Virus record (IMG/VR): IMGVR_UViG_3300039165_000048
Location: 1-64,000 of that record
Length of the DNA stretch: 64,000 bases
DNA from: a virus
Taxonomy: Duplodnaviria; Caudoviricetes
Strand: one strand, 5' to 3'
Positions 1,008 through 22,572 of the stretch are shown here, piece after piece (the first letter of the stretch is position 1; every line of letters begins with the position of its first letter). The notes beneath the pieces are model-generated. The model saw nothing but the letters and a program-made list of their open reading frames with translations. It was not told where the DNA came from and ran no database searches. The translations under genes and the position numbers were made by a program.

Positions 1008-1120
1008 GTCCCCCAAAACATCAGAAGGAACGACACAAGGAACAACACCAATCTTTGTGTCATTCTTTTGATAAGGGACCGATTTTTCTATCCAGTTGGT
1101 CGCTTTCTGTTATTTTTTTT
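1008..1120 (+). ncRNA. Putative small structured RNA (hairpin family member 1)
   Basis: TATA box TTTATATA at 979-986; stems GTCCC/GGGAC, ATCAGAAGGAA/TTCTTTTGAT and GACACAAGGA/TCTTTGTGTC; followed by a T-rich tract; no ORF. Confidence 0.55.
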
Positions 1121-1322
1121 AAAATTATTATTTGCTTCCACTAGTAGAACCCATCAACAAAAATACTTATATACTAGGACGTATAACTACTCCTTAGAGG
1201 TATAATAAGATGTCTGATGAAGTACGACATTTATTGGGGAAGTTAGAAATGTCTTGAAACGTGGCATACAACGATCAATGTATTGTAGGATTTTTAATTA
1301 ATTTTTTATTTTTTTATGGCCT

Positions 1323-1361
1323 ACCAAAAACTATATATTCTTAGAAGTACTAGTAGTACTT
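1323..1361 (+). promoter_or_regulatory. Archaeal BRE-TATA promoter with palindromic operator AAGTACTAGTAGTACTT
   Basis: ACCAAAAACTATATATT, then a 17-bp palindrome at 1345-1361, then a GAGGTGA RBS before ATG1380. Confidence 0.7.
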
Positions 1362-1379
1362 GGTAAAAAGAGGTGACTT

Positions 1380-3194
1380 ATGTACGGACTAGGAAATATA
1401 GATCTACAAAAATATAATCCATTCCCGAGTTTTCAGTCTGGACAAGCAGAAGCAATAGCCCAGATATTAGGCCACTTTGAGAATGGCCAGAAAGTAGTTG
1501 AGCTTAATGCACCCACCGCTGCTGGTAAGAGCCTAGACCTATTTGTATTGGGCAGGATACTCAGCGAAAAGATGGGTGTTCGGGTAGTTTACACCACGCC
1601 ACTAGTAGCATTAGTCAACCAGCTTGAAAACGAGCCTGCTTTTGGTGCCATGCCAGTCCTGAAAGGCAAGCGTAATTACTTTTGCGGTCCGATGTCCGAA
1701 GTACTTGGCCGGGACATAACAGCGGATGACTGTCCATACGAGAGCTGGGAAGACGCAATCGAAGACTGCTCAAGCTGTGCTCAGTGTCAGTACAGGATAG
1801 CCTACAAGAAGTTCATGGACAGAGGATTTGGGGCCACAACATTAGCTCGCTACCAGATGCCCGGAGCCGTTCGCGACGAAACCGTAATCCTTTTAGTAGA
1901 TGAAAGTGCGGGCTTAGAAAAGGTCCTAATAGACAGAGCCACCCTTAAGATCCCGGACAGGATTAACTTGAACAATTTGTCCGAGAACTTGAGAAGGTAC
2001 TACCACGAATTGGAAGTCGAAATCGAGAAGTTAACACGGGAGGTTAGCCTAGAAAAGGACTTAGCCAGAAAGGTAGCCTTAAACCAGGAAAAGAACAAGC
2101 TCGGTCGTGAATCCAGGAAGTGTGTTAAGGTCCTAGCCCACATAGAAAAAGGCCACCCATACATAATAGACCGCGAGCGAAAGTTCCGGTTGTTAGATGG
2201 CAGATCCGAATTCGAGGACATGATTGAAGGACTACAATATGTAGTACTGGCATCAGGGACACCCACGACCCAGATATTAACCGAAAACTATAAGTCCGTG
2301 GTTATACAGCACCCGATCCCAGTTGAACGCCGGATCTGTTACTACGATCCAGTTGGGTCCATGAACTTTAAGGAAAGACAAACAACAGCACCAAAGATGG
2401 CCCAGAGGATCAATGAGTTACATGAACGGTTCGGCAAGAAAACCATGGTACACTGCGGTGCCTACGTAGTGGCCCAAATGATCTATGATAGTATGCCAAA
2501 CAAGGACATTTGCATACTACAGGATCAATCTGACAGGGAAGGCAGCAAAAACAAGTTCTTGACAACAGAAGGCCAGGCAATCTTCTTGTCCGTGAACTTC
2601 GAGGAAGGCTTAGACCTCAAGGGGCCAGAATACCCATTAAACATAATAGCCAAGTTGACCTTTGAGAACATTGCAGACGAATTCATAAAGGCCAGAAACG
2701 AGCGAGACAACTACAAGAGATACAATTTAAATACTGCAGTTGCTACTATGCAGGCTGCAGGACGGTGTACAAGGTCCGTTAAAGACTACTCCGAAACATA
2801 CATCTTGGATGCAAGCTGGCAGGGATTCTTCAATCGCAATAAAAGACTATTACAGCCTTGGTTCATAGCGAGTTTAAGAATAGGGAACCCGGAAGAAGTT
2901 AAGATAGAAAAGATTGAAACACCAAAAATAGAAATCAATACAGAAAACCAAAAACGACAAGAACAGCCAAAATACGGACAACTTGAAAAAGCCCTTATAT
3001 ACTTAGCAGGGAGGTGCGACGGTGCAATAAAACAAGACGGACAAGGCTTCAATGGTAGAGACACCGAGTTCGGGCACTCGTTAGCGGACCAGATACTAAG
3101 AGGCAGAACACTGAGTCCGAAACAGAGGTCCGCAGCTGAGAGAATGGTTAAGACCTACAAAAAGCAATTAGAAAAGGGTGGCATAATATTATAA
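1380..3194 (+). CDS. DinG/XPD-like SF2 helicase with C-terminal extension
   Basis: Q motif (FQSGQ), Walker A NAPTAAGKS, Cys cluster, variant Walker B LVDES, SGT, EGLDL, motif VI QAAGRCTR, YILD; extra C-terminal CDGA..DGQGFN domain. Confidence 0.85.
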   Translation: MYGLGNIDLQKYNPFPSFQSGQAEAIAQILGHFENGQKVVELNAPTAAGKSLDLFVLGRILSEKMGVRVVYTTPLVALVNQLENEPAFGAMPVLKGKRNYFCGPMSEVLGRDITADDCPYESWEDAIEDCSSCAQCQYRIAYKKFMDRGFGATTLARYQMPGAVRDETVILLVDESAGLEKVLIDRATLKIPDRINLNNLSENLRRYYHELEVEIEKLTREVSLEKDLARKVALNQEKNKLGRESRKCVKVLAHIEKGHPYIIDRERKFRLLDGRSEFEDMIEGLQYVVLASGTPTTQILTENYKSVVIQHPIPVERRICYYDPVGSMNFKERQTTAPKMAQRINELHERFGKKTMVHCGAYVVAQMIYDSMPNKDICILQDQSDREGSKNKFLTTEGQAIFLSVNFEEGLDLKGPEYPLNIIAKLTFENIADEFIKARNERDNYKRYNLNTAVATMQAAGRCTRSVKDYSETYILDASWQGFFNRNKRLLQPWFIASLRIGNPEEVKIEKIETPKIEINTENQKRQEQPKYGQLEKALIYLAGRCDGAIKQDGQGFNGRDTEFGHSLADQILRGRTLSPKQRSAAERMVKTYKKQLEKGGIIL

Positions 3195-3274
3195 TGCCAC
3201 CAAAACTTATTACTAGTAGTACATGAGGTGAAGTAACAACATGAAACCAATCACTTTTTTGGATGTGAGGATAT

Positions 3275-3472: not shown

Positions 3473-3564
3473 CGGTTATTTTTCTTTATCTTCTTCCTGT
3501 TCGGGGCCAAGACGCAATATTTTTATAGACTTTTCATTATTTTCAATAAATTTATTATCTTTTT

Positions 3565-6500
3565 TCATACAATCGCCTTTATAGTAGTTATTTTAACATG
3601 TTTCGCAGATCTATCTTTATACGATCCATTGTTCGGTGGTATAATGTCAGTATATCGTGTTTCTACAACTTTGAACTTGGTTCCACGATTCACTAAAATT
3701 TCAAACTCGTTTGGTAATCCGCTTTCTTCTGCAATAAATAAAGCCTTTGTACCGCTAGGCAATTGCAATTCTAATAATCTACCCATTCTTCCATTTTCAT
3801 CTGTTGTGAAGTTATTTGCCATGAATGGTAATGCTGACGTTGAACTAAAGCATGGAAACTCAATTTCTGATCCAGGAGTATCCAACGCATTTACTAACTC
3901 CGGATATTTTGATAATGTTTTATTAGATATTCCCCTATACGTAACTAATGGCTCCGATAAGTCGGAATTAGTAAATAATTTATCTAATTTTTCTATGAGT
4001 TGTTTTGATTCTTTTACAATAGCTTTATCAAATACATCATTACTATTTTCCATGTCTTTCATGGAACCATTTAAATATTCGTTTATTTGATGAAATCTAC
4101 CACCACTATACATAGTTAGTACATGGCGGTCATTTTTACTAAATTTTTTAAGTGGTTCCGCTGCTTTATTTAGTGATGCTTGTATCTGTTTGTTGGCTTC
4201 AATATCTTGAGGAGAGGAAAAATCGTGATCGGCTTTGAAACCAATGAATGTTTCCGAAGTGTGTTTTGAATCAGATGTATTGCTTTTTTCTTGCTCTTCC
4301 GGATTACACTTGTTGGAATCATCGACGGTTCCCTTTGGACACTTATAATTGAGTTTTATTGTTTCAAAAGCATCAGATAGGTAAGAGGAATTTTGTTTTT
4401 CTATAATAGATTCTACATCCCCAGGAACCCAGATTTCACCAGCGCCACTTAAACTAGGTATGATTTCATTAGTAGGAACTTCGTATTCATAAATGCTTTC
4501 TACGCCCATGCGCTTTTGATAGGCTTCTGCGACTTGTTTGTTTGGGAAAAAACTATTTGTCATGCCAGTTTTGGCTCGTCCAACTCTGTATAAAGTAGTT
4601 TTTTCCGGTATATCTAGTCCAAAGTGTTCGTGTAGTAAATAAGACTTGAGAAGTTTGTTGTTTTGTACAACACTTATAGCATCTTCACGAGCTTCTGGTT
4701 CTATGTTTCTTAACCATTTATCACCTAACTTATTAAATAAATTGTATTCTGGACTGCCTTCTACCTTTTCTTTTATCATGTCATATATTTCTGGATCGAC
4801 TTTCCAAAGTCTTGCATAAAATTCTAAACCATTTTCGGACTTGTTGTTTGATGATATAGGAAACATAGTAATATTTTTATGTTCATTACCAGAACTTCCT
4901 CCGCATGATCCTGGACCACTTCCAATTTTTTCAGAGTCCGGACAGTTATAATTCAGCTTGATGGTCTCAAAGGCATTAGCTAGGTAAGAGGAATCTTGTT
5001 TAGATTGATTTTGTTTATTATATGGTATAATTTCCCATACAACATTTGATTTATATGTGGAAGCATTTCCTCTGTATACATTATTATTATATTTATTATC
5101 AACAATTTCGAAATATCCTTCAACCATACTAACAGGTCTTCCGATATATACTTCTGTTATTGATTCATCCGAAATTTTTCCACGTATTCCTATTTCGCCT
5201 TCTGTAGTGCCCTTTTCATGATTTCCAGGATCTTTAATTTTAATCATAATAGCAGGTTTGTCTATTGTTGGTGCATATTGCCAAGGTGCGAATCCAGATG
5301 CATAATTAGCGGCAGTACTTTTTTCATCCGAAAAAAATGTCATATCGCCTTGAAAATCAAAATTATATTGTGCCTCTGTTTTTATATAACCATTATTTTT
5401 AATGCCTTCAAATTCTTCATAAGACATACCCCTAAATAAATAGCCTTTCTCTTTGCCGGAAGGTAACTTCATTTGATTTTCTATTTCTGGATTAATTGGT
5501 ATAACAACAGTACTTTTTCCATTTCCGAATGGAATTTCTTTCATATATGTTGGATCATACCAAATATTTTTATCATCCAATGCATCTTTTTTGTTTTTCC
5601 ATTCAATTGGTATTTTTTTTGGAATTACCCTTATTTTATATACTGTATCATACATACCTTGTTTTTTTTCTGTTTTAAATTTAAATTCATTTCTAGATAC
5701 CGCCTGTTTTGCTGATTCAAATTCCTTGCCCAATTTCAAATCTTGCGGAACACCATCAAATATTGGTTTTTCGGGTTCGTGTTTTTCATTTGGTTTGTTT
5801 CCTCCACAGCTTCCAGGTCCTGATCCAATCTTTTCTGAGTCCGGGCAGTTATAGTTAAGTTTCATGAAGTTAGTAACATCTTCCAAATATTCAGAATTTT
5901 GTTTCTGTTCATTAGTTTTTATATGAGCATTATACTCCAAATATAATCGATCATCATCCGCCGGTCTAATATATACTTGATCAATTACAATTGTTTGGTC
6001 ACGTCCTATTAAATATTCATCTATTTTTCCACCCAATTCGTCTTCAAGTCCTGTATAATCTGCTATTCGAATTGCTGGAGTGCCTTTTGGCACAATTAAA
6101 TTAATCAAGCCAGTTACGCCATATTTACTAATATCTCGGGACGGAGCAAGAAATCTATTCATAGTATTTTCTTTGTCACTACCAGTTGATAAATATGCTT
6201 TTTCCGTGTACTCATAACCAACTAATTTTTCTCGAATTTTATCTATCAGTTTATGATTTTTTATGAAATCTTCTAGGGTTAAACTTTCTTTTCCGAACGT
6301 ATCTTTAAATATGTTTGTTAATCCGGTCTTTTCAAACGCATCTGATGATATACCAGCGCTGTCTGCTCTAAATACCAATTTATCTGACTTTAATGGATTA
6401 TTTTCCATTTCAGAATCAATTGTTTTTATCATGTTCTGTATATTTTTAGTTTGCTGAGGATTTTGTTTAACATGATTAGTTTTTCTTAAATAATCGTTTA

Positions 6501-7644
6501 TAGCAGTGTATGCATAATTTTGATAGTCAGACAAAGCTTTATATGGTGTTATGGGTTCGGGATCAGTGACGATATCGTTAGTAATCTTTGCGTTGTCTGG
6601 GTTACGCAATTTTTCTTTCTCTAATTCTAAATCGAGTTCTTTCTGAATACTTTTATATTGCTCATAGGCTTCATCGAAAGTAGATTTTCCTTCCGAAACA
6701 GATTTCTCTAGTTCACGTATCTTATTTTTAAGCGTAGATACTTTATCTAGGTTAGAAGTATTGCCGCCAGAACAACTACCTGGACCCGATCCTATTTTCT
6801 CGTCGTCTGGACAGTTATAGTTAAGCTTTATTGTGTTTACCACATCGTCCAAGTATGCACTATCTTCTTTCATTTCGTTATAATCATCCTCTGAATACGT
6901 AACCATTGAACACCTGCATTGCGGGTGTCCCGTTGCAGTCATTTCTCCGTTACTAAAAGGTTCATTTATAGGCACGGTTTCCATGTCGTGTGACATACAC
7001 AAATCACAGCTACGTTCGTCACCAACTGCCCGCCATTGTTTGTATTTGTGATCGGCGATTTTGGCACGTTCCAATACCCCATTATATTCTGCAAGGTGGC
7101 GCTCACTTCGATAAATGTTTTCTAGCCGTGATTTACTAACTGGATATGAATCTTGAAATTCTTTTGAAAATGCATCAGGACCCTTGCCCCAATTATTTAT
7201 TAGGTCCTGTTTCATACTATTTAAATCTGTTTTTGTTAACGATTTACATAATTCGAGGCCATGTTCTGCAAAATATTTTTGTGCAAAATTTACAATTTGT
7301 TTTGGATCGGGAGCAGGTTCTTGTACGGTAACAACGGGTTGTGGTACAGACGGTTTTCCTGACATGCCGTTAATGATTCCAGGTAGTATAAATGGAGTAA
7401 AAATAGTTAACCATAATTTGTAATTCTTTGATATTAATTTGGGGGTTATGTCTTCTTGAAGTTCGTTCCATATATCCAATAAATCTTCTGGAATATCATC
7501 GATATTGATATCAATATTATTTTGTATATCATTGAGTTTTTCTTGGAAGCTTTTAGATTTAGATATTGGCGATAATGGGACTTTGGGAATTGTTTTTATA
7601 GTGTTTGGTACTATTTTAATCGGCTTTTTGGTGGTGGCTGGCAT
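3565..7644 (-). CDS. MuF/SPP1 gp7-like minor head protein fused to four ADP-ribosyltransferase-like domains
   Basis: MuF signature KQWRAVGDERSCDLC...HPQCRCS. Four repeated linkers K[EQ][DN]SxYL...KLNY[NK]CP. Domains 1 and 4 are VIP2-like (domain 4: INEYL, YRG, FSSTS, EFEILVNRG). Domains 2 and 3 have divergent R-S-E-like motifs (LFRGMS..FFS..GEI; LYRVG..SFF..GEIWV). Start set at ATG7644 because of a GAGGA RBS; the track start is 7668. Confidence 0.85.
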   Translation of the reverse strand: MPATTKKPIKIVPNTIKTIPKVPLSPISKSKSFQEKLNDIQNNIDINIDDIPEDLLDIWNELQEDITPKLISKNYKLWLTIFTPFILPGIINGMSGKPSVPQPVVTVQEPAPDPKQIVNFAQKYFAEHGLELCKSLTKTDLNSMKQDLINNWGKGPDAFSKEFQDSYPVSKSRLENIYRSERHLAEYNGVLERAKIADHKYKQWRAVGDERSCDLCMSHDMETVPINEPFSNGEMTATGHPQCRCSMVTYSEDDYNEMKEDSAYLDDVVNTIKLNYNCPDDEKIGSGPGSCSGGNTSNLDKVSTLKNKIRELEKSVSEGKSTFDEAYEQYKSIQKELDLELEKEKLRNPDNAKITNDIVTDPEPITPYKALSDYQNYAYTAINDYLRKTNHVKQNPQQTKNIQNMIKTIDSEMENNPLKSDKLVFRADSAGISSDAFEKTGLTNIFKDTFGKESLTLEDFIKNHKLIDKIREKLVGYEYTEKAYLSTGSDKENTMNRFLAPSRDISKYGVTGLINLIVPKGTPAIRIADYTGLEDELGGKIDEYLIGRDQTIVIDQVYIRPADDDRLYLEYNAHIKTNEQKQNSEYLEDVTNFMKLNYNCPDSEKIGSGPGSCGGNKPNEKHEPEKPIFDGVPQDLKLGKEFESAKQAVSRNEFKFKTEKKQGMYDTVYKIRVIPKKIPIEWKNKKDALDDKNIWYDPTYMKEIPFGNGKSTVVIPINPEIENQMKLPSGKEKGYLFRGMSYEEFEGIKNNGYIKTEAQYNFDFQGDMTFFSDEKSTAANYASGFAPWQYAPTIDKPAIMIKIKDPGNHEKGTTEGEIGIRGKISDESITEVYIGRPVSMVEGYFEIVDNKYNNNVYRGNASTYKSNVVWEIIPYNKQNQSKQDSSYLANAFETIKLNYNCPDSEKIGSGPGSCGGSSGNEHKNITMFPISSNNKSENGLEFYARLWKVDPEIYDMIKEKVEGSPEYNLFNKLGDKWLRNIEPEAREDAISVVQNNKLLKSYLLHEHFGLDIPEKTTLYRVGRAKTGMTNSFFPNKQVAEAYQKRMGVESIYEYEVPTNEIIPSLSGAGEIWVPGDVESIIEKQNSSYLSDAFETIKLNYKCPKGTVDDSNKCNPEEQEKSNTSDSKHTSETFIGFKADHDFSSPQDIEANKQIQASLNKAAEPLKKFSKNDRHVLTMYSGGRFHQINEYLNGSMKDMENSNDVFDKAIVKESKQLIEKLDKLFTNSDLSEPLVTYRGISNKTLSKYPELVNALDTPGSEIEFPCFSSTSALPFMANNFTTDENGRMGRLLELQLPSGTKALFIAEESGLPNEFEILVNRGTKFKVVETRYTDIIPPNNGSYKDRSAKHVKITTIKAIV

Positions 7645-7793
7645 ACTGTCCTCAAAAAAATAATACAATCAAAGTATTGTTTTATAACGTTCGGTATTAT
7701 ATTTTTCTTTTTTATTTTTATTATATACGACTATGTTATTATTATTTAAAATTGTTATTCCGTCAACTTCGTTATCTTCTAAAAGTAACTTCA

Positions 7794-9056
7794 TTATATC
7801 GCCTTCCAGTGAATTATCCTATATTTATCATTTTCTTCTATGTTTTCTATTTTAAATTGTTGACCAGTATTTAATAATATTTCCTCTTCATAATAATTTG
7901 AATTAAGATGCTTAGTCATATCCATAGCAGGTGTACCTTTTGGTATTTCACATTTTATTATATTTATTTTAGAATCTTTATTTTTCTGATTTGTTATCGC
8001 AAAATCATATGCAACAGCAATATTTTTAGAAGTTGAAGTAAAACGAGAACATTTGATTTCTGATCCAATTTTCATGCCCTTGGACACTAATTTATCATAA
8101 GCAGAATCCGAAATACCACGAAATGTGATAACATTATTTTCAATTTTATTTGAATTTATTATAGAACTTAATCTATTTATAAATTCAACACATTTTTTAG
8201 GTTGATTTTTTGAGTCTATAGTTCTATTAACTGTTTCATAATGTTCACTAGAATAATATTCTAATATACAATCAGTATCCCAATTTTTAATAGGAACGTA
8301 ACTATATCTTTTTTGTAGTGGTTCTAGTTCATTCAATATTACAATTTCTTTTTTTTCTGCGATTTTAGGATCTTTTTCATTTTTATATATTGTACTTATC
8401 TTGTTTTCTAGTTCTTTTATTTTAGTTTCTCTTTCTTTTTTCATATCTTCTTGGTATTTTTTTAATGGATCTAACTTGGGATTATCCAATATAAATTGTT
8501 GACGGTGTATTGGATTAGTTATTTGAGATATCTCATTAAGTTCGGAGGTTATTCTATCGATAGTCTTATTAGTATGAGGTTTTGATTCATTATCTGCAAA
8601 ATTTGTTTTTGATTTTTTATTTTTTTCTTTGATTTCGTTGTAAGTGTCTTTCTGGTGATTCAAGTTATTAAATTCTTTTAATGCAAGATCTTTAATATTT
8701 TTTAACTTTTTATACTCATTTGATGTAGTATCATAATTGTGTTCATTCAGATATTTATTTTCTTCTTTGAAAGCCTTTGAATATATAGATTTTGCTATTT
8801 CTAGTTTAGAATTTAAGTTATCATAATCTTTTTTTGTTATTTTTGAAGTATTTTTAGGCACCGATTTACTTTTGCTAGAAGGTAACTTTTCTTTTTGTTG
8901 TTTTTCATAATTCTTCTTAGCTTCTTCTGGCGTTTTGCCGCAACTAAAAGAACCTTCTTCAACGGTGCCTTCCTTGCATTTATAATTAAGCTTGATGCTA
9001 AATGGTTCCAGGTCTAGTTGATAAAAGGCACCTTTCTTACCAAGGAATTTATACAT
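7794..9056 (-). CDS. VIP2-like ADP-ribosyltransferase with shared N-terminal leader
   Basis: Leader MYKFLGKKGAFYQLDLEP..IKLNYKC; coiled-coil middle; C-terminal TFRGIS, FTSTS, PKGT, EEEILL. Confidence 0.85.
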   Translation of the reverse strand: MYKFLGKKGAFYQLDLEPFSIKLNYKCKEGTVEEGSFSCGKTPEEAKKNYEKQQKEKLPSSKSKSVPKNTSKITKKDYDNLNSKLEIAKSIYSKAFKEENKYLNEHNYDTTSNEYKKLKNIKDLALKEFNNLNHQKDTYNEIKEKNKKSKTNFADNESKPHTNKTIDRITSELNEISQITNPIHRQQFILDNPKLDPLKKYQEDMKKERETKIKELENKISTIYKNEKDPKIAEKKEIVILNELEPLQKRYSYVPIKNWDTDCILEYYSSEHYETVNRTIDSKNQPKKCVEFINRLSSIINSNKIENNVITFRGISDSAYDKLVSKGMKIGSEIKCSRFTSTSKNIAVAYDFAITNQKNKDSKINIIKCEIPKGTPAMDMTKHLNSNYYEEEILLNTGQQFKIENIEENDKYRIIHWKAI

Positions 9057-9061
9057 TGTGT

Positions 9062-9172: not shown

Positions 9173-9218
9173 TTTATTCCTCCGGAACCTTATATACATA
9201 ATTATTTCCTCATTATTT

Positions 9219-13819: not shown

Positions 13820-13828
13820 GTATATCTC

Positions 13829-14065: not shown

Positions 14066-14086
14066 AAATACTCACCATTCACTACT

Positions 14087-14527
14087 TTATTTATATACTA
14101 ACTCGGTGCGGAGTGTTTGTGCTTCCTTTTCTCCCATTTTATATTCATCCTCATTAACCATATCCTCAAAATAACCAGCATGAAAATATGGTTTTTTATA
14201 AACCTTTTTACGTGTATCGGTTTTTATATTATTTTTCACGATTTCTATTAATTCTTTTGTGGCACCATCAAAATCAATTTCATCCGAATGCCAATTATTA
14301 ACTAAATCAATCAAAAAGTCCTTTACTAGGTCTTCACATGTAGGTTCTTGTATTTCCCAGTGGCCGGTATATACTTTTCTATTATTAATGATTCCAAATA
14401 AATCGCTTTTAATATTTTCCATGTAATGGACGGCAGCTGTATAGTCAGATGCCTTAAACAAAACAATCTTGTTTGGGCCGTGCTTTGCGTAAAAGATGCC
14501 TTTGTAGGTTTTCATGTTATACCTCAA
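14087..14527 (-). CDS. Hypothetical protein
   Basis: ORF within a tightly packed minus-strand cluster. Confidence 0.6.
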   Translation of the reverse strand: MRYNMKTYKGIFYAKHGPNKIVLFKASDYTAAVHYMENIKSDLFGIINNRKVYTGHWEIQEPTCEDLVKDFLIDLVNNWHSDEIDFDGATKELIEIVKNNIKTDTRKKVYKKPYFHAGYFEDMVNEDEYKMGEKEAQTLRTELVYK

Positions 14528-14718
14528 TATGTTTCACGTAACCAAGCAAACATAATAAGTCCAGTTAATGCAATTCCATAAATTACTACTGTTGTTCCAA
14601 ATTCTTCATAAATTTTTATTAGCCCCGCATAAATCAATATAAATCCCCAAAATGACGTCATGAATAATAATACTAATTCATATAATGTATCTTTTGACAT
14701 TTTATTACTTCCTATCAA
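14524..14718 (-). CDS. Small two-TM membrane protein
   Basis: Two hydrophobic helices. Confidence 0.55.
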   Translation of the reverse strand: MIGSNKMSKDTLYELVLLFMTSFWGFILIYAGLIKIYEEFGTTVVIYGIALTGLIMFAWLRETY

Positions 14719-14739
14719 GTTTTCAGGGTCCTTTGTGTA

Positions 14740-14955
14740 TTATCGCCACTTCCTTGAGTATGCTTCATCTATTATTGAACCAATAAATATAATAAATATT
14801 GTTAGATATGCTAACACGATTATACCAAAAATTACATCAATATAATTAAGTGCTATTGCAAAACTATAATTTATTATTGCATTAATAATAATTATAATTA
14901 TCGAAAACGGTATTAATCCAATTACAAAATACCGAATGTATTGTAATATCGACAT
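14740..14955 (-). CDS. Small two-TM membrane protein
   Basis: ILQYIRYFVIGLIP...YSRKWR; paralog of 15370..15582. Confidence 0.65.
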   Translation of the reverse strand: MSILQYIRYFVIGLIPFSIIIIIINAIINYSFAIALNYIDVIFGIIVLAYLTIFIIFIGSIIDEAYSRKWR

Positions 14956-15140
14956 CAGTAATCACGCATCTCCAATGTCCAATCAATAATTGTACCAATT
15001 GTATATATAACTAATAATATTGATCCTATTACCAAAGCATATACTATATATATTGTATAGTCCCTCAATAACCACACAAGCAATACTAGTAATACACACG
15101 GTATTGAACCAACTATGAACTTCATAATATACTTTGACAT
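14955..15140 (-). CDS. Small two-TM membrane protein
   Basis: KFIVGSIP...IGTIID; same family as its neighbours; translationally coupled. Confidence 0.6.
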   Translation of the reverse strand: MSKYIMKFIVGSIPCVLLVLLVWLLRDYTIYIVYALVIGSILLVIYTIGTIIDWTLEMRDY

Positions 15141-15157
15141 TATATGCCTCTATATTA

Positions 15158-15379
15158 TCAAAATCTTAGCATATCCCAAAATCCACCACTTTTTTTATAT
15201 TTACCAATTTGATATTCACGATCTCTAGAATCTTTATCCCCATAAATAATCATATTATATACTTTGCTATATTTTCCATTGGAAATATTTTTTATAGCTT
15301 CTTTTTCTTTTAGAACTCTTACAAGAAATATATTGAATATTGTCTCACTATAAGTAGGTTCTTTGTACATTACCGCCAC
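15158..15379 (-). CDS. Hypothetical protein
   Basis: ORF in a packed cluster. Confidence 0.5.
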   Translation of the reverse strand: MAVMYKEPTYSETIFNIFLVRVLKEKEAIKNISNGKYSKVYNMIIYGDKDSRDREYQIGKYKKSGGFWDMLRF

Positions 15380-15582
15380 TTCCGTAAGTAATCTTCATCC
15401 ACTATTATACCAAACACAATAATAACTGCTATCAAAAATATACCTACAAATATATTAAAAACTACTTGCAGCAAATTTGGCGCAACTTCATAGATATACC
15501 CAATTGCATGCATACTAAGTGTGATTATTAAAAGCGGTACTAGTCCAATTATGAAGTATCTAATGCCTTGCAATATCATCAT
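15370..15582 (-). CDS. Small two-TM membrane protein
   Basis: ILQGIRYFIIGLVP...YLRKWR. Confidence 0.65.
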   Translation of the reverse strand: MMILQGIRYFIIGLVPLLIITLSMHAIGYIYEVAPNLLQVVFNIFVGIFLIAVIIVFGIIVDEDYLRKWR

Positions 15583-15752
15583 ATAATACTCTTCCTTATT
15601 TCTAACCTAAATATACTATCCTTATTAATCATAATTTCTAAATATGGATTATTTGTCCAATAGCACAACCAACTGTCATTAATGTTATATCCGTCTACTG
15701 TTGTTTTTAAATATTTTCCATCCATTGTAATGATAGCTAAATCATGTTTCAT
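15579..15752 (-). CDS. Hypothetical protein (start revised to ATG15752)
   Basis: MKHDLAIIT...; GAGG RBS. The upstream part of the track ORF is a leader hairpin. Confidence 0.55.
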   Translation of the reverse strand: MKHDLAIITMDGKYLKTTVDGYNINDSWLCYWTNNPYLEIMINKDSIFRLEIRKSII

Positions 15753-15756
15753 TTTT

Positions 15757-15830
15757 TGCCTCTTCAAACAAAGAAAAACAAAACAACCAAAAGGCTGTTC
15801 TGTTCTTTCCTTGTCTGGTTTTGGGTGCAC
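15757..15830 (-). ncRNA. Structured 5' leader hairpin (family member 2)
   Basis: CAGACAAGGAAAGAACAGAACAGCC-TTTT-GGTTGTTTTGTTTTTCTTTGTTTG with G-U pairs; starts ~20 nt after the promoter at 15851-15867. Confidence 0.55.
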
Positions 15831-15892
15831 ATTAATAAACACTGTATGAGTATTTAAGTTTTTTGGTTATCCTGATTTTCAATACATATGAA

Positions 15893-16144
15893 CTACTGGA
15901 TCTCCTTTTGGCGGAGTTTCTGCACATTTTCTTCAGCATTTCCAGTGCCCTTACAATGAGGATAGTTTCCTTTTCTTTTATGATGCGATTCAGACTTATA
16001 TGGAACCATTATGATGGCTGGAAACTTTGAAAATCCTTCTCCTGTTATGGTTATTGAACCTTTTTTCATGTTTAGTATATAGTCAATTCCTTCAATTAAC
16101 ATAATACCATTTTTGCCTTCGATTGTAATTGTATTTTTAGACAT
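15893..16144 (-). CDS. Hypothetical protein
   Basis: ORF with a degenerate CxGxG motif. Confidence 0.5.
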   Translation of the reverse strand: MSKNTITIEGKNGIMLIEGIDYILNMKKGSITITGEGFSKFPAIIMVPYKSESHHKRKGNYPHCKGTGNAEENVQKLRQKEIQ

Positions 16145-16161
16145 TTTTACTTCCTTTGGAT

Positions 16162-16614
16162 TCAGTATATTGGTTCATTAATTTTATTTCCTTCAGTTTT
16201 AGAACTATCTATTGCAGTGTTTATATAAAAGTTACCACATTTTTTATGTTGTTTTTTGGATGCACTTTGTTTCATTTTTATTGCTGTTATGTACGCGCCT
16301 AGCAATGCCTCTGCTGGGGAATTTGCTTCTTTCCATGTTATACCTGATTCATGGTATTGGTTATAATAATCTCCGTCGTATCCAGGACCAATTTCACATA
16401 TTTCAGCATAATGTGATTTTTCTTCTTCGGGGGTTTGTTTATGTACGCTCCATGTCCATCCTCGGCTTTCGCATGCTCGCTGGATGCAACCTTGAATTAG
16501 TGCATGGCCGGATGTACTATTTTCGTTGATTAAGAATGACAATGATAGATCTATGTCATTCCAAGTCTTAGGATCGACTTGTTTCAAATCCTCCAGAAGC
16601 TCAGAGAGGGTCAT
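16162..16614 (-). CDS. Hypothetical phage protein
   Basis: 150-aa ORF with a GAGG RBS. Confidence 0.6.
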   Translation of the reverse strand: MTLSELLEDLKQVDPKTWNDIDLSLSFLINENSTSGHALIQGCIQRACESRGWTWSVHKQTPEEEKSHYAEICEIGPGYDGDYYNQYHESGITWKEANSPAEALLGAYITAIKMKQSASKKQHKKCGNFYINTAIDSSKTEGNKINEPIY

Positions 16615-16684
16615 CGAAAGGCCTCTGGATATTCCTCCGCGAGATTCGTGACGTATATTCTAGTTTCTGTATTATCTTCGGGGT

Positions 16685-16984
16685 TCATTGTTTTCTCCTT
16701 CCTGAGCCACCACATATAGGGCATTCTTCGTGTTCGTATAAAACAGGGAAATGGCAACGTTCACTAAATACTGGTATTGCTATGTTTCCGGTTCCAAGAC
16801 AACTTTGACAAACTTCTGTTTTTATTTTAGGAGGATGATCAATGTTAAAATGCTTTGGATTTTTCGGACCTTCTGGAATAACCACTGGATAGTTTATTAA
16901 TTCGATCTTATAGATATCCGAATCTAAAATCTTGTTCAGACGTTCTCTGTAATGTATTAGGTCTTCTTCATTATCAGGATTCAT
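16685..16984 (-). CDS. Protein with DnaJ-type CxxCxGxG zinc-finger repeats
   Basis: CQSCLGTG and CPICGGSG; GGAGG RBS. Confidence 0.65.
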   Translation of the reverse strand: MNPDNEEDLIHYRERLNKILDSDIYKIELINYPVVIPEGPKNPKHFNIDHPPKIKTEVCQSCLGTGNIAIPVFSERCHFPVLYEHEECPICGGSGRRKQ

Positions 16985-16999
16985 TATTTTCCTCCTTTA

Positions 17000-17233
17000 T
17001 CAGTACCAATGAATAATAGATATTGTGGTTGCTGGTTTCATTCCTTGCTCAGTAGTGGATATAGGAATAACCTCCCCGAAGGTAACTGGATAAGTGCTCT
17101 CATCGAACAGTAGATCATCTTCGCTGGATGATCTTGCAACTTTGCCACTTCCATTACATACCGGGCACACGATTAGGTCGGGATCGTACAGAATGCAGCA
17201 ACGGTAATATTGATGTTCTTTTTCAGTTATCAT
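17000..17233 (-). CDS. Small CxxCxGxG protein
   Basis: CPVCNGSG; coupled to the upstream ORF. Confidence 0.55.
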   Translation of the reverse strand: MITEKEHQYYRCCILYDPDLIVCPVCNGSGKVARSSSEDDLLFDESTYPVTFGEVIPISTTEQGMKPATTISIIHWY

Positions 17234-17463
17234 TTTTCCTCAAAGCTGCTGTATTTTCCAACAGTAAATCTGTTAAAATCTTCCTCGCACGTACATCTTC
17301 CATTCTTTTCCCTCCCACAGTCATCTTTTTCTTCTAGATATACATTAATTTTTATTATATATCCTTTGGTTATCCAGTCGCATAAATCCGACATCAAATT
17401 AAGAAGTCCGCCCAAATGATCGCTGCTTAAATTATATACCCTAGTCGGAATTCCATATCTCAT
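17230..17463 (-). CDS. Hypothetical protein
   Basis: GAGGTGA RBS. Confidence 0.55.
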   Translation of the reverse strand: MRYGIPTRVYNLSSDHLGGLLNLMSDLCDWITKGYIIKINVYLEEKDDCGREKNGRCTCEEDFNRFTVGKYSSFEEK

Positions 17464-17483
17464 ATCAATTCACCTCACTACTT

Positions 17484-17913
17484 TTATTTTATCCCTATGG
17501 GGCAAGACTGAATTTGGTTTTCACATTCAAAAGTTAGTTTTATAGTGAATGGATTATGTTTAACAATTGTAGCTTTGTTGCTTTTTAATAACTTTCTAGC
17601 TTTCGCTCTTGAACATGGCATTAATGGTTTGCCATCTACTGCTAATACATACACATTTGTCTTTAAGACCGCCTGTATGTGGGCGTTGTTCACTTCGGGA
17701 TTGTTATCAGAGGTCGAGAAGCTCCGCTCACTGAGAGTTTCCTCTCTGTTTAAAGACGGAACCACAGAGCTACAAGCTAGTGAAGCACTTGTAGGTGTGC
17801 TAATTAATTGTCTCTCTGATAACTTCTGCATAGATTTTCACCTAAGCTCCCTAATCAACTCTTGCGTCGAACGTCGCCGTTCAAGCCACGCCCTTCAGGA
17901 CGTGGTAGTTGAC
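17484..17913 (-). mobile_element. iscB: Internally deleted IscB (IS200/IS605) element: end hairpin, omegaRNA/HEARO-like region and PLMP domain only
   Basis: End sequence GTCAACTACCACGTCCTGAAGGGCGTGGCTTG. The ORF fragment VYVLAVDGKPLMPCSRAKARKLLK...PFTIKL matches the IscB N-terminus and stops before RuvC-I. Confidence 0.8.
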
Positions 17914-17987
17914 GTACAGCAATTTGGTTTTCTAATTCTTCAATCTTTTGTTGCATTGTTTTCATGTAAGTCACCTCATTTTCTACT

Positions 17988-18004
17988 AAGTACTACTAGT
18001 ACTT
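17988..18004. promoter_or_regulatory. Palindromic operator AAGTACTACTAGTACTT
   Basis: 17-bp palindrome upstream of a GAGGTGA RBS on the minus strand. Confidence 0.6.
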
Positions 18005-18012
18005 GATTCTAT

Positions 18013-18264
18013 TTATACGTTTTGGTCACCATACACTTCATCTACAATTTCATCGATATCCCTTGGATAATACCCAGATTCCTTTAGCATGTTTCTAAGA
18101 TCATCTTCTTTACTAATACCCGGCTCTGGTTCCATTATGTCAGAATATTCATGTAGAATCCACGACATTCTAGTACCGGCGTCATATCTATAATCTCCAC
18201 CTTCTCGGAGTAAAGCTAACTTTAGTTTATGTATTCTTGTTTTAGTGTCATATGTATACATCAT
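18013..18264 (-). CDS. Hypothetical protein
   Basis: ORF with a GGAG RBS. Confidence 0.55.
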   Translation of the reverse strand: MMYTYDTKTRIHKLKLALLREGGDYRYDAGTRMSWILHEYSDIMEPEPGISKEDDLRNMLKESGYYPRDIDEIVDEVYGDQNV

Positions 18265-18304
18265 ATTAATTCCATCTCCTAATATATTCCATACTAATTA
18301 TTCC

Positions 18305-18718
18305 TTACCTTGTCCTTATTGCAATCATTGGTACGTCTATCTTATATTCCCCAAACTTGCCGAATGACGGTGTTTCTTTTTCAACAGTCATGGCTTCGAC
18401 GCAGCAAAATACATCAACTTTCCAATGTTTCGGACACAATTGTTCCAATAGTTCTCTGGCACATTTTCTGTTATTGTAGATTATTAATGCGTCAACTACG
18501 TTTTCACGGTGGTGACTAGTTCCATCTGATAACACCAAATGAATTGTTTTTATGCAAGATTCTCCAGAAAGAGATATGCAATGGTCCTGTAATATGCTAA
18601 ATAAACTTTTTTCTTTACAATTTCCATAGAAATTTAATTTTGGTTCATTGATGGTTTTCATTTCTTTATACCTCCAATTTTTAAATTGGTCCATTTGTTT
18701 TTTGAAATTATCAAACAT
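18305..18718 (-). CDS. Hypothetical protein
   Basis: GGAGG RBS. Confidence 0.6.
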   Translation of the reverse strand: MFDNFKKQMDQFKNWRYKEMKTINEPKLNFYGNCKEKSLFSILQDHCISLSGESCIKTIHLVLSDGTSHHRENVVDALIIYNNRKCARELLEQLCPKHWKVDVFCCVEAMTVEKETPSFGKFGEYKIDVPMIAIRTR

Positions 18719-18735
18719 CGCAGTGCCTCCATGTT

Positions 18736-19209
18736 CTAATAATGAACGGATTTATTGGAGTCAGCCTTACTCATCACACAATCACTTGAAATCACGGCAT
18801 ACTTTATATTACCATCGTCTTTCTTGATTTCAACGACCAAGTGGCAATCCTTATTGTTGCCATTTTCTTTTTCTACATATTGCAAAATAGTGCCGACTTC
18901 CTGTTGACTACCATTCATGAATGATATAGTGTCGCCTACATCAGGTACCCAATCCACTGATATACACGGTTCTAGAGAACTTGGTGGAAACGAATGTTCG
19001 GTGTAACCGTTATTTATATATATTCGAATAACAGGACCTCTTTTATCATCATCTTGTTGTGCTAACCACATTCCCATTACGCGTCCTACTTTACCAATAA
19101 ATTTATTAGCAATATCTGGCAATAACGGTACCCAACCTTCTTCTGTTCGGTCCTTAACTACAATCACTTTCATACCAAGTTTAATGTCTTCTAACTTCAT
19201 ACTGGTCAT
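18736..19209 (-). CDS. Hypothetical protein, possibly tandem SH3/KOW-like beta domains
   Basis: IKLGMKVIV..GKVGRV and PDVGDTISF..VGTI patterns. Confidence 0.6.
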   Translation of the reverse strand: MTSMKLEDIKLGMKVIVVKDRTEEGWVPLLPDIANKFIGKVGRVMGMWLAQQDDDKRGPVIRIYINNGYTEHSFPPSSLEPCISVDWVPDVGDTISFMNGSQQEVGTILQYVEKENGNNKDCHLVVEIKKDDGNIKYAVISSDCVMSKADSNKSVHY

Positions 19210-19229
19210 CTCCTAGTTATCTTTTTCCA

Positions 19230-19294
19230 CCCTCAAACAAAAGAAACAAAACAGCAAACGCTGTCTTGTTGTCCTTTGCCTGTTTTGTTGGGCA
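19230..19294 (-). ncRNA. Structured 5' leader hairpin (family member 3)
   Basis: GCCC-AACAAAA-CAGGCAAAGGA..ACAAGACAGC-GTTT-GCTGTTTTGT.TTCTTTTGTTTG-AGGG; follows the promoter at 19316-19332. Confidence 0.55.
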
Positions 19295-19315
19295 TATACT
19301 ATACTATTGCTAAAG

Positions 19316-19357
19316 TATTTAAAGGTTTTGGTAGCTATTACCAAAACGTATTTATAC
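19316..19357. promoter_or_regulatory. Back-to-back BRE-TATA promoters
   Basis: TATTTAAAGGTTTTGGT...ACCAAAACGTATTTATAC; the same arrangement recurs near 50907, 57701 and 63456. Confidence 0.7.
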
Positions 19358-19379
19358 AACAACCACTAAACAAAGTATT

Positions 19380-19793
19380 ATGAAAATGATTCAAGCTGAT
19401 CAGATATTACAGAAAATTCCACCATTCTTAGAAAGCGACGTAAACGATAAAATAATAATATCTGTGTCTATTTCACCAACGAATATAAAATACATAAGTT
19501 ATGTAAGAATAAATAAATTTAACAGTACACTAACGTTTCGTGGTTGTCGATCACATCAAAATCAAATTTACAATTGGGCGGATAGTTATAACGCAGGAAT
19601 TTCTGTATTAGATTTGATTAATAAGGAATATAAAAAATTAACTTCTGATGGTTTTAAGGTAACATACTATATAATAGAATCCAAAAAAGAACTTAAAACT
19701 TTCATGCGAAGAAACAATATAGAAAACGGTTTATTGGGAATTGAATTATTCGAAGTTTGGAATAAACTCAAAGAAAACAAAAACATTAAATAA
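19380..19793 (+). CDS. Hypothetical protein (possible member of the NPxxxIP paralog family)
   Basis: Leaderless start after the promoter; KIPPFLESDVNDKIIISV. Confidence 0.6.
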   Translation: MKMIQADQILQKIPPFLESDVNDKIIISVSISPTNIKYISYVRINKFNSTLTFRGCRSHQNQIYNWADSYNAGISVLDLINKEYKKLTSDGFKVTYYIIESKKELKTFMRRNNIENGLLGIELFEVWNKLKENKNIK

Positions 19794-20241
19794 AATAATG
19801 AAATATCGCACAAGCTATAAGTATAACTGATATTAATACTACTTCCAATACAAACAACACATAACATATCCCAAACAGTGTGGAATCGGAATCAGTTGTC
19901 ATGTTTTCCTCTCGTATTCGTATTCAAGTTCGGACATTGATATTGAATGATTAGGACCGAATCGATTTCGCACTGCCTGGTAAATGGCTTCACGGTCTTG
20001 CCTTCGCAATGCCCTAAATTCCGGTCTTTGGAATTCCACGAGCCTGGTTTGTTTCATAGCAACCTTCTTATAATACTAGTATGACCACATTCAATATTAT
20101 GCCAACAATTGTACCGACAACGCATTTCAAACAAAATACATCATTTTCTTCCATTTTACATCACCTCACTTTTTACCAATTACTAATAGTACTTACTAGA
20201 ATAAATAGTTTACGGCTGAAAAAAATATGTTATTGTAATTA

Positions 20242-20418
20242 TTATTTTGTTATTATTACTGGTTCTTCGAATATGTCTCTACTTAATGATATTTGTTTAT
20301 TTATGCTTTCCATGAAGTCGACCAAATAACTTATTGTTTCGTCATATGTTCTGCCATTTTTAATATTATCTAATCGATCCTTTGTTGAATCACTCAACTT
20401 GATTGTTTTTGTCATCAT
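20242..20418 (-). CDS. Ribbon-helix-helix (CopG/VapB-like) DNA-binding protein
   Basis: Translated by hand: MMTKTIKLSDSTKDRLDNIKNGRTYDETISYLVDFMESINKQISLSRDIFEEPVIITK, which fits the archaeal RHH pattern KTIxLSxxTKxRL..K....YDExI..L; palindrome at 20441-20466 upstream. Confidence 0.7.
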   Translation of the reverse strand: MMTKTIKLSDSTKDRLDNIKNGRTYDETISYLVDFMESINKQISLSRDIFEEPVIITK

Positions 20419-20577
20419 TTATATATTCCACCTTATTTTATTAGTATACTATAGTAAGTATACTAAAATCATAGTATTTATAGTTTTTGCCTGATTTACA
20501 TTGATTTTCATTGACTTACTATATTTATAGAAATTATTAATATATTTATACAGTTTTTTTAAAAAACCAATATCTAT

Positions 20578-20720
20578 TACTTATACTTATACTTATACTT
20601 ACTTATACTTTATACTTACGTAATATAGTAGTAATATAGTAGTAATATAGTAGTAATATAGTAGTAATATAGTAAATATAGTTAGTAGTTATTGATTATA
20701 TAGTAATATAGTAGTTATAG
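20578..20720. repeat. Tandem short repeats (CTTATA)n and 11-bp (GTAATATAGTA)x5; candidate origin or iteron region
   Basis: Visible directly; very AT-rich, non-coding, at a point where transcription diverges. Confidence 0.8.
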
Positions 20721-20952
20721 TAAAAAATATAAAGAGCTTAAAACTTTAGTAGTATAGTAAAAGTTTTTACCGTATTACCTTATTAGACAATTTACGGGTA
20801 TTGGTTTTTGGAAAATTTTGCAATAGGGTATGGATAATTTTTAGGACGTTTACGGCCGAACCAGGTAGAAAGCCCACGATCTTTAGTCGTGGGATGAATG
20901 CCGTACGTTCTCCACAAAGCTTATATAGATGGCAAGCGTATAACATCTTAGC

Positions 20953-21354
20953 ATGGTAAGTACACGATGGACACATAGTACAACCACCGTCTATAACATC
21001 GGATACCACATTATTTGGTGCCCTAAATATAGACGGAAGGTTCTTGTTGATGTTGTAGAGGAAATGCTGAAACTTCTCCTCTACAAAAAGGCATACGAGA
21101 TAGGTATCTCCATTGAAGAAATGCAGATTATGCCAGACCACGTTCATCTATTTGTCAAAGCACCACCAACCGCAAGCCCACATTGGATAGTTCAACAACT
21201 GAAGGGCTATACTTCCCATGAATTGAGAATGCAATTCACGTCGTTGAAAACCAGGCTTCCCACCCTGTGGACTCGCAGCTACTACATTGAATCTTGTGGG
21301 CATATCTCGGAAGATACCGTCCGAAAGTACATCGAGGAGCAAAAGAAGAAATGA
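20953..21354 (+). CDS. tnpA: IS200-type HUH (Y1) transposase TnpA
   Basis: YHIIWCPKYRR, MPDHVHLF (HUH), KGYTS, LWTRSYY, YIEEQ. Confidence 0.95.
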   Translation: MVSTRWTHSTTTVYNIGYHIIWCPKYRRKVLVDVVEEMLKLLLYKKAYEIGISIEEMQIMPDHVHLFVKAPPTASPHWIVQQLKGYTSHELRMQFTSLKTRLPTLWTRSYYIESCGHISEDTVRKYIEEQKKK

Positions 21355-22358
21355 TCCTAACCTACAAAATCAAGCATGGTAGGGACTTCTCAGATGAACT
21401 GAGAAAGGCTAGGAAGGTGGCAAAGTTTGCTATCCAGACTCATAGCCTTAGCTCCAAGGATGTCAAGCATATTGGTTTGAAATCGATGATCTCTAACCAG
21501 ATTCTCAGAAAGTATAGCCGAAGCAATACCGCCAAATCTGTTAAGAGTGTCAAACTCGCAGTACCTAACCAGGGAATCAAAGTGGATCGAGATACAAAGA
21601 CCATATCGGCACCATGCTTGAAGCTTTCACTAAAATATGAGTTTCCTGATAACTTTGAGAAGGTCAATCAAATCGAAGTTGGCGAGGAATATGCCTATGT
21701 TTCAGTGTCCATTCAAGAAACAGAACTCATTAAGGCTGAGAAATGGATAGGGGTAGATCGAAACACCGTAGGACATATAGCCGTAGTTGCTGATCCCGAA
21801 AGTGGCAAGGTCATCAAGCTCGGAAAGTCCGCTCTCCACATCCATCAGAAATACAAGAACATTCGCAAAGGACTTCAGAAGAAAGGCAAATATGGCAAAG
21901 TCAAACAACTCAAGGATCGGGAAAGTCGAATAGTCAAGGATATCAACCACAAGGTATCCAGAAAGATCGTTGATACTGCCAAAGAAACTGGCAAAGGTAT
22001 CAAACTTGAAGATCTAACCGGAATCAGGAACGGCAAGCATAACTCAAAATCATTCCGCTATGCTAAGAACAGTTGGTCATTCTATCAAATCCAAAGCCAG
22101 ATAGAATATAAGGCTAAGCTGCTTGGTGTAGAAGTCGCTTATGTTGATCCGGCATATACTTCAAAATCATGCAGTAGATGCGGACTCATCGGAGACAGGA
22201 ACAAAAAGAATTTCAAGTGTCCTCATTGTGGGCACGTTGATCATGCTGACAGCAATGCGGGATTCAATATCGCAAAGCGTCCGTGCATAGATCGATTGCA
22301 TACAGACAGGGATGTATGCAAAGGGACCACTGATAGCCCTAAAGTTGCTCTGGCTTGA
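21351..22358 (+). CDS. tnpB: TnpB RNA-guided endonuclease
   Basis: RuvC-I IGVDRN, RuvC-II LEDL, YTSKSCSRCG..CPHCG Zn finger, HADSNAGFNI; ATG21351 overlaps the tnpA stop. Confidence 0.93.
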   Translation: MILTYKIKHGRDFSDELRKARKVAKFAIQTHSLSSKDVKHIGLKSMISNQILRKYSRSNTAKSVKSVKLAVPNQGIKVDRDTKTISAPCLKLSLKYEFPDNFEKVNQIEVGEEYAYVSVSIQETELIKAEKWIGVDRNTVGHIAVVADPESGKVIKLGKSALHIHQKYKNIRKGLQKKGKYGKVKQLKDRESRIVKDINHKVSRKIVDTAKETGKGIKLEDLTGIRNGKHNSKSFRYAKNSWSFYQIQSQIEYKAKLLGVEVAYVDPAYTSKSCSRCGLIGDRNKKNFKCPHCGHVDHADSNAGFNIAKRPCIDRLHTDRDVCKGTTDSPKVALA

Positions 22359-22506
22359 ATCCAGCTAACAACAGAACCCCAGGTGCTTTAGCCCTGGGAG
22401 TATGTCAGTGATAACGGTTTTTCGTGTAATAGGATTTACTGTACTTTAGAAGATTTTGATGTATCCAATACCAAAAAGCTTAAATACGATCATAGTGTTT
22501 TATAAT

Positions 22507-22572
22507 GTGCCCAACAAACACCGGAAAGCCAGGAGACAAGATTTTCCTTGTTTCCTAACTTTTCGATGAGGG
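22507..22572 (+). ncRNA. Structured 5' leader hairpin (family member 4)
   Basis: GTGCCC-AACAAAC..CGGAAAG..AGGAGACAAG-ATTTTC-CTTGTTTCCT..CTTTTCG..GAGGG after the promoter at 22470. Confidence 0.55.

Follow-up and report, generated by a model that had tools for sequence, protein, structure and literature searches.

A candidate RNA hairpin family on a portable promoter cassette of a tailed virus with archaeal promoters

We have found a family of hairpins which, judged from its sequences, is a real, conserved and undescribed RNA family carried on a mobile promoter cassette of the virus IMGVR_UViG_3300039165_000048 (IMG/VR database); the function proposed for it below is inferred. The whole virus record, here G000, has 126,632 bp and is estimated to be 90% complete; its first 64 kb constitute the window in which the family was noticed. 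Related viral contigs compared with G000 carry the labels G001–G005, G013, G015, G016 and G029–G032.

Fold, covariation and strand bias

A sequence-only reading of the window had placed four hairpins with one shared fold behind TATA boxes. All four were found where it had put them, with folds far above those of shuffled sequences: minimum free energies (MFE) lie between −24 and −30.6 kcal/mol, with z-scores of −3.9 to −5.3 relative to dinucleotide shuffles, of which no more than one of 200 folds equally well. At every site a short, C-rich strand forms the base and leads into an unpaired C/A tract; the long stem beyond it contains 2–7 G·U pairs, and a strand of the GGG type closes the structure. 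The four hairpins and their promoters are as follows (BRE, B recognition element; ORF, open reading frame; CM, covariance model, see below).

970..987, + strand: BRE/TATA promoter of the ORF-less copy; perfect consensus match, kept in G001
1008..1079, + strand: ORF-less leader-type hairpin, putative small-RNA gene; MFE −27, z −4.6; CM match of 64 bits
1083..1120, + strand: T5 run (1083–1087) and T8 run (1113–1120), probable termination signals of the stand-alone RNA
15850..15867, − strand: BRE/TATA promoter
15758..15830, − strand: predicted 5′-leader hairpin; MFE −30.6, z −5.3; sense −30 versus antisense −17.6 kcal/mol
19315..19332, − strand: BRE/TATA promoter
19229..19293, − strand: predicted 5′-leader hairpin; MFE −29.6, z −4.9; sense −29.6 versus antisense −17.8 kcal/mol; 5 G·U pairs
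22470..22487, + strand: BRE/TATA promoter and left edge of a conserved module; homology to G001 begins at 22469/22470
22507..22572, + strand: predicted 5′-leader hairpin; MFE −24, z −3.9; the antisense strand folds equally well

When all 107 BRE/TATA-like sites of G000 were scanned, the six most stable downstream folds were these four and two new ones. A covariance model built from the six added a shorter seventh copy and produced no further match in G000. The three additional copies all lie beyond the window.

G000:78598-78674, − strand: new hairpin copy, from the scan of promoter sites
G000:80317-80394, + strand: new ORF-less hairpin copy, from the scan of promoter sites
G000:64120-64185, + strand: shorter seventh copy, from the covariance model

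The covariance-model search across the full genome and related viruses, which the sequence-only reading had proposed, thus gave seven copies in G000, and it gave further ones in relatives. The relatives were reached through terminase relatives and a gapped promoter-plus-GCCC pattern; an exact 17-mer scan of viral contigs returned no match. G001, a 124.6-kb collinear relative (71% alignable with G000 at ∼91% identity), carries six copies, and G002–G005 and G029–G032, which are partial contigs, carry one to three each, making 33 distinct sequences in total. More distant terminase relatives contained no genuine copies, and the CM search near relatives of the TnpB gene described below found no hairpin copies. 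Weak CM matches in G013, G015 and G016 were rejected because they lie inside coding sequence and have no promoter; those in five Methanothrix, Methanosarcina and Ethanoperedens genomes were rejected as generic A/U hairpins, occurring on both strands and without the GCCC and C/A signature. An Rfam scan, also proposed earlier, came back empty: at the six hairpin-bearing loci no family matches the hairpins, even at E ≤ 1.

The sequence-only reading had staked its claim on a common fold with covariation, and both are present among the 33 distinct sequences. In the alignment 85.5% of cells are paired, compared with 48–59% when the partners are slid; 16 of the 22 pairs, including all eight pairs of the apical helix, have changed on both sides; and 0–1 of 500 shuffles reach the observed covariation values, with the reservation that many alignment rows are close relatives and that the alignment was fitted to the model, so that the pair counts lean toward structure. 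The mean MFE is −26.8 on the sense strand versus −21.0 on the antisense strand, and four of the six types fold 8–16 kcal/mol better on the sense strand owing to their 4–7 G·U pairs. This clear advantage of the sense strand in most types argues that selection acts on RNA; as the stems vary from copy to copy, there is no one sequence-specific DNA binder that would recognise all of them.

The ORF-less copies point in the same direction. The sequence-only reading had described the copy at 1008 as having no ORF and ending at a T-tract, which is what we see: the T5 and T8 runs lie behind it and the next promoter begins at 1157. It is not the single copy of this kind, however, as that reading had it, because the copy at G000:80317, beyond the window, is a second (behind it come an ORF of three codons, a short GC hairpin and then a T7 run). 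Both are kept in G001. The G001 ortholog of the 1008 copy (G001:93397–93476) folds despite 17 substitutions and 11 gap columns (fold kept versus random mutation, p = 0.03), with the promoter and the CCGA+T5 junction retained; the ortholog of the 80317 copy has the same layout, 9 substitutions, 7 gap columns and a better fold (p < 0.001). Overall, 23–38% of the columns of the ORF-less copies have changed with the fold kept, a rate of change above the ∼9% divergence of the surrounding genome. Preservation of the fold through so many changes marks these copies as selected RNAs, not decaying remnants. Further ORF-less copies exist in G029 and G032. The idea of a free copy therefore stands as far as the copies themselves are concerned; that they titrate a binding protein, as was also suggested, is pure speculation.

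Start-site anatomy and cassette edges

The promoters of this virus are archaeal; the BRE/TATA consensus occurs 27 times in the window versus 2.6 expected. A BRE/TATA promoter stands ahead of every hairpin copy, and the orientation of the hairpin always follows the promoter. The distance from the last base of the TATA box to the first CC is 23 nt in 26 of the 33 distinct members and 24–29 nt in the remaining ones. The archaeal TATA box is centred near −26, so with this fixed spacing the G of (U)GCCC, 21–22 nt past the TATA box, falls at the expected archaeal start position, and the predicted +1 is a G in nearly all copies. Along with the covariation and the sense-biased fold of most types, this rigid phasing bears out the earlier proposal of a cis-acting element under selection at the RNA level.

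The same G pairs with the closing strand, which is of the GAGGG, AGAGGC or GGGAC type and in most cases has an A-run behind it. The duplex of GCCC with the closing strand is better than that with 95% of random tails in 14 of 33 members, and the pairs that flank its C–G core covary (UGCCC/GGGCA, GUCCC/GGGAC and GUGCCC/GGGUG). If transcription starts as predicted, the 5′ end of the transcript would be buried in a helix. After GCCC comes a tract of 6–12 nt of C and A only, G or U being almost absent from it in all members, and then a stem of 22–31 bp whose 5′ arm is 75–88% purine and whose 3′ arm is 55–71% U; the apical loop, usually NUUU, is closed by G–C pairs. On inspection the copies showed no kink-turn (K-turn) or box C/D motifs: there is no GA dinucleotide in the C/A strand before the long stem, and GA next to GGG is present only on the 3′ strand of the internal loop. 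A K-turn or box C/D RNA was thus rejected, the required elements (a 3-nt bulge with sheared G·A pairs; RUGAUGA and CUGA) being absent. A link to nicotinamide adenine dinucleotide (NAD) caps or to ADP-ribosyltransferases was set aside given the G at the predicted +1.

The three window copies other than that at 1008 head runs of small ORFs, in agreement with the sequence-only reading; these ORFs have no Pfam or PHROG match, and in all ten ORFs downstream of hairpins belong to no Pfam or PHROG family. The real Shine–Dalgarno (SD) sequence usually lies free, 3–30 nt past the hairpin, an arrangement more in keeping with protection than with repression. In a few copies (that at 15830, L124 and that in G003) the closing strand is itself the SD or the start codon; at 15758..15830 the closing AGAGG strand lies 6 nt ahead of the ATG at 15752. 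The hairpin at 19229..19293 is followed by a 157-aa ORF (18736–19209) with a separate SD; behind that at 22507..22572 a mini-ORF of two codons precedes the real SD and the ATG at 22589. Mini-ORFs of this kind (ATG, 1–2 codons, stop, hence two or three codons) follow the GAGGG-type strand in several cassettes, among them these.

Window 22577-22585: mini-ORF
G000:80391-80402: mini-ORF
G001:79184-79192: mini-ORF

They may be what is left of a ribosome-binding site (SD and ATG) once carried by the cassette, or tiny leader ORFs.

Promoter and hairpin make up a single portable cassette, and its edges fall at recombination breakpoints, a feature that the sequence-only reading had missed. At three of the seven copies the 3′ edge of the hairpin is no more than 15 nt away from a point where G000/G001 homology breaks, against an expectation of 2.6% (binomial 6e-4). 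Homology to G001 stops 8 nt beyond the 3′ edge of the 15758..15830 hairpin. The 22470–22591 module has breakpoints at both edges, and the genes downstream of it are unrelated between G000 and G001; its hairpin is nearly identical across G001, G004 and G005 despite their differing downstream genes. RNA data were available from four runs over 13500–24500, all in the form of Logan contigs of related strains, from which neither start sites nor ends nor strand can be read. In one of these contigs 15754 is connected to 15962 through 16 different letters and the module between them is missing, moderate evidence (the contig was aligned at 90% likeness) indicating a strain without it. Loose contig ends at 22470, 22584 and 19332 hint that module edges are breakpoints between strains. 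One X12 contig stops at 19274 and continues into Illumina adapter, a single observation that is not interpretable.

A complete IS200/605-type insertion sequence (IS) element spans ∼20870–22469 (+), with a Y1 TnpA (20953–21354) and a TnpB (21294–22358), and ends exactly at the BRE of the 22470 cassette; as it is inserted against this BRE, the guide region of TnpB would run on into the promoter of the cassette. G001 and one X9 contig have other sequence up to 22469 and no such element. A tRNA-Leu(UAA) gene at G000:78170–78253 (−) (L049:1073–1156), ∼350 nt downstream of the 78598–78674 hairpin on the same strand, probably belongs to the unit led by that hairpin. Between the divergent cassettes at 78706 (−) and 80285 (+) lies a 1.1-kb segment (G000:78889–80030) that is probably another mobile element: in G001 the same two divergent cassettes are ∼370 bp apart and the segment is found elsewhere (G001:60249–61393). 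A ∼200-bp repeat at G000:80031–80248 recurs at three other places.

The only Rfam match in the window is to HEARO, the omega-RNA of IscB, at 17683–17913 (−) with 109.5 bits. It is followed only by a 115-aa ORF (17484–17831, −) covering the first 55 positions of the RRXRR domain, with no full-length IscB next to it. The stretch 17505–17913 is 100% identical in G001 at a shifted position, between flanks of 88–92% identity, and other strains carry 233 different letters in its place. It has the appearance of an IscB element that is truncated or has moved recently.

At the promoter level a second class was observed: at the start-site position, in place of the (U)GCCC of the hairpin class, its promoters have a conserved palindrome of the CTAGTAGTACT type; this suggests that the virus has at least two separately regulated promoter classes. 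Promoters of the second class lie at the following places in the window.

1323-1365, + strand: second-class promoter with palindrome
18026-17985, − strand: second-class promoter with palindrome
30547-30510, − strand: second-class promoter with palindrome

The window genes include a portal, a MuF protein, a large terminase and ADP-ribosyltransferases, which marks it as a tailed virus. At 3565–10169 (−) are a 1367-aa polyprotein joining MuF to an ADP-ribosyltransferase and a 316-aa stand-alone ADP-ribosyltransferase (Pfam PF03496 and PF04233). The host is probably a methanogen: the closest named terminase (46% identity) belongs to a virus assigned to Methanomicrobiales; relatives of the window's IS200/605 TnpB occur at 76–86% identity in Methanothrix-like contigs of ∼50% GC; and the sequencing runs containing the virus come from wastewater and bioreactors. 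In G000 genes sense-strand runs of five or more Ts are 4.7-fold rarer than runs of five or more As (1.18 versus 5.6 per kb), an avoidance consistent with oligo-T acting as a terminator signal in the host.

Proposed role and competing explanations

The explanation that we favour, tentatively and somewhat short of believing it, is that of a portable promoter-leader cassette whose RNA hairpin buries the 5′ end of the transcript, protecting it from decay that depends on a 5′ end, and displays the C/A strand as a possible handle. The cassette would comprise a BRE/TATA promoter, a start at the G of (U)GCCC, a leader hairpin of ∼70 nt and an SD-like tail of GAGGG and an A-run. Once transcribed, the hairpin would form, the first transcript nucleotides pairing with the GAGGG-type strand; the 5′ end would then be stacked under the long R:U-rich stem, with the 6–12 nt C/A-only strand exposed in an asymmetric internal loop. 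Such a structure could shield transcripts of ORFans, probably early or accessory genes, from decay by enzymes such as aRNase J and aCPSF2, the 5′-to-3′ exonucleases of euryarchaea, and the C/A strand could mark the transcripts for a putative factor. The two ORF-less copies would yield the same hairpin as a free RNA of ∼75–115 nt. Being conserved and repeated, the cassette would also serve as a joint at which relatives swap the genes downstream of it.

Several points weigh against this explanation. The pair counts are biased toward structure by the close-relative rows and the model-fitted alignment; neither the 22507 nor the 1008 type is strand-biased, the antisense strand folding just as well; and in the basal helix the core C–G pairs are invariant, with covariation at the flanks only. 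The block from −13 to +14 is conserved in sequence, and GCCC with the C/A tract could be conserved as promoter DNA (initiator, initially transcribed region or operator) instead of RNA. Finally, a simple 5′ protector needs neither a conserved C/A-only tract nor stand-alone copies.

A dedicated RNA-tag system is a further possibility, to which we give only a minor weight. Here a viral or host RNA-binding factor would read the closed 5′ helix together with the C/A strand and control a regulon of ORFans, and the fast-evolving stand-alone copies would titrate the factor as decoys.

We regard it as doubtful that the hairpin is chiefly an insulator, stopping or attenuating upstream read-through and part of its own output, so that blocks of ORFans are isolated and the unit acts as a recombination linker. 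This is the role suggested by the PeSLs (promoter-early stem-loops) of T4-type phages, in which a promoter, a stem-loop with G–T pairs and an SD stand beside ORFans as they do here (PMC2839356). The breakpoints at the cassette edges and the U-rich 3′ arms, some with T5–T7 runs, would suit an insulator, and the ORF-less copies would act like promoter-terminator pairs. However, at least three of the seven copies lie at divergent junctions (1008, 19294 and the 78680/80310 pair), where there is nothing upstream to terminate. Runs of five or more Ts number 9 versus 12 expected among 27 3′ arms, neither enriched nor avoided, with most arms reaching T4 at most; A-runs, not T-runs, lie behind the copies that lead mRNAs; and a terminator behind its own promoter would starve the genes that it heads.

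A trans-acting small RNA seems rather less likely again. In that case the free hairpin, released by termination or processing, would be the active product, with the downstream mRNAs made by read-through. The two ORF-less copies per genome, kept in G001, and the additional ones in G029 and G032 speak for it, as do stems that evolve fast under a retained fold, and the exposed C/A tract could be a seed. No convincing G/U-rich complement of the GCCC and C/A motif was found in G000, though, five of the seven copies have the SD and start codon of a gene block within 3–30 nt, and no small RNA was observed.

It is improbable that the site works as DNA, whether as an operator, as a cruciform or single-strand hairpin, or as a recombination site recognised by a protein (in the manner of attC or of IS200/605 ends). 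The conserved −13 to +14 block, the palindrome at the same place in the other promoter class, the IS200/605 element with TnpA and TnpB adjoining the 22470 module and the resemblance of the 5′ motif of some copies to the RYYYAAC inverse core of attC would each accord with a DNA site. The divergent stems fit no one sequence-specific binder, however; G·U pairs make four types fold 8–16 kcal/mol worse on the other strand; orientation always goes with the promoter; and a unit contains a single hairpin, not two ends. No PF00589 (tyrosine) recombinase was found in the 90%-complete G000, with 14 of 14 control genomes positive. An integron attC was accordingly rejected, since there is no PF00589 integrase and no GTTRRRY partner on the 3′ side, and every unit has its own promoter. 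A repetitive extragenic palindrome (REP) or IS200/605 end was rejected too, because each unit has a single, promoter-oriented hairpin and G001 has the module without the IS.

Processive antitermination in the manner of HK022 put, in which the nascent hairpin would make RNA polymerase ignore operon terminators and which the sequence-only reading had offered, is the least credible of all: as with putL and putR there are several promoter-proximal copies per genome with a fold kept on diverged sequence, but every copy is a single hairpin and not two adjacent stem-loops, hairpin-led operons hold 0.98 sense-strand T5+ runs per kb versus 1.18 genome-wide and hence no excess to read through, conserved T-runs stand right behind the ORF-less copies, where they would be pointless after an antiterminator, Rfam gave no match, and put acts on a domain of bacterial RNA polymerase.

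Known systems and what the family may mean

By analogy, the closest counterparts of the promoter-leader cassette appear to be the PeSLs (Arbiol et al. 2010, PMC2839356; Comeau et al. 2014, PMC4122927) and the class I/II intergenic repeats of halovirus HF2, 29–58 bp promoter elements (BRE, TATA and alpha, beta and gamma motifs) for which promoter activity was measured (Russ, Pfeiffer and Dyall-Smith 2021, PMC8707807). Like PeSLs, the cassettes are repeated units of ∼100 bp (seven in G000, with the 23-nt spacing from TATA box to hairpin) with a strong consensus promoter, a stem-loop with G–T/G–U pairs and a 3′ SD, scattered among ORFans in plastic regions; the indels and gene replacements that set close relatives apart have their ends at the cassette, as seen here in the ten family-less ORFs, the three of seven edges (p ∼6e-4) and the contig that skips a module. 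Unlike in PeSLs, the promoter is an archaeal BRE/TATA and not a sigma-70 promoter, the stem-loop always follows directly on the predicted start site and so forms a 5′ leader, covariation and strand bias of the stems point to RNA, there are a C/A-only loop and a helix that closes the 5′ end, and some copies stand alone as putative small-RNA genes; there is no sequence relationship. With the HF2 repeats the family shares class-specific repeated promoter units in an archaeal tailed virus, found at the same positions in relatives and heading early-middle gene blocks; it differs in the transcribed covarying hairpin, which HF2 lacks, and in that activity was measured there and is read from sequence here. 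Because it is a covarying, strand-biased leader anchored at the predicted start, with a C/A-only loop and stand-alone copies, the family would be distinct from both.

Two further comparisons concern the RNA itself. Stabiliser stem-loops at the 5′ terminus are known from the E. coli ompA leader and from the B. subtilis phage SP82. They resemble the present hairpin in standing at the very 5′ end (the predicted start here) with almost no unpaired 5′ nucleotides and sometimes an SD-like purine run; they are features of single genes, whereas here a dispersed covarying family is fused to a promoter class, and they act against RNase E and RNase J1, whereas here archaeal beta-CASP enzymes would be concerned and stabilisation is only proposed. 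HK022 put is likewise a promoter-proximal cis RNA in several copies per genome with a conserved fold on diverged sequence, in contrast to which the present element has one stem-loop, no terminators to read through and T-runs right after its ORF-less copies.

To our knowledge, cis-regulatory RNAs of archaeal viruses are almost unknown. The family lends itself to testing by virtue of its rigid promoter-hairpin geometry, strong covariation, distinctive loop of C and A only and naturally occurring ORF-less copies. A hairpin that protected or tagged the 5′ end would offer a handle on mRNA decay and temporal control in viruses of methanogens, as well as a compact promoter-leader part for expression work in methanogens. 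An RNA-tag system, if true, would be an archaeal-virus counterpart of control of the CsrA/CsrB or N/boxB type, mounted on a cassette that shuffles genes. From the PeSLs of T4-like phages comes the idea that regulatory cassettes are joints at which genes are shuffled; the breakpoints at the cassette edges carry it over to tailed viruses of archaea.

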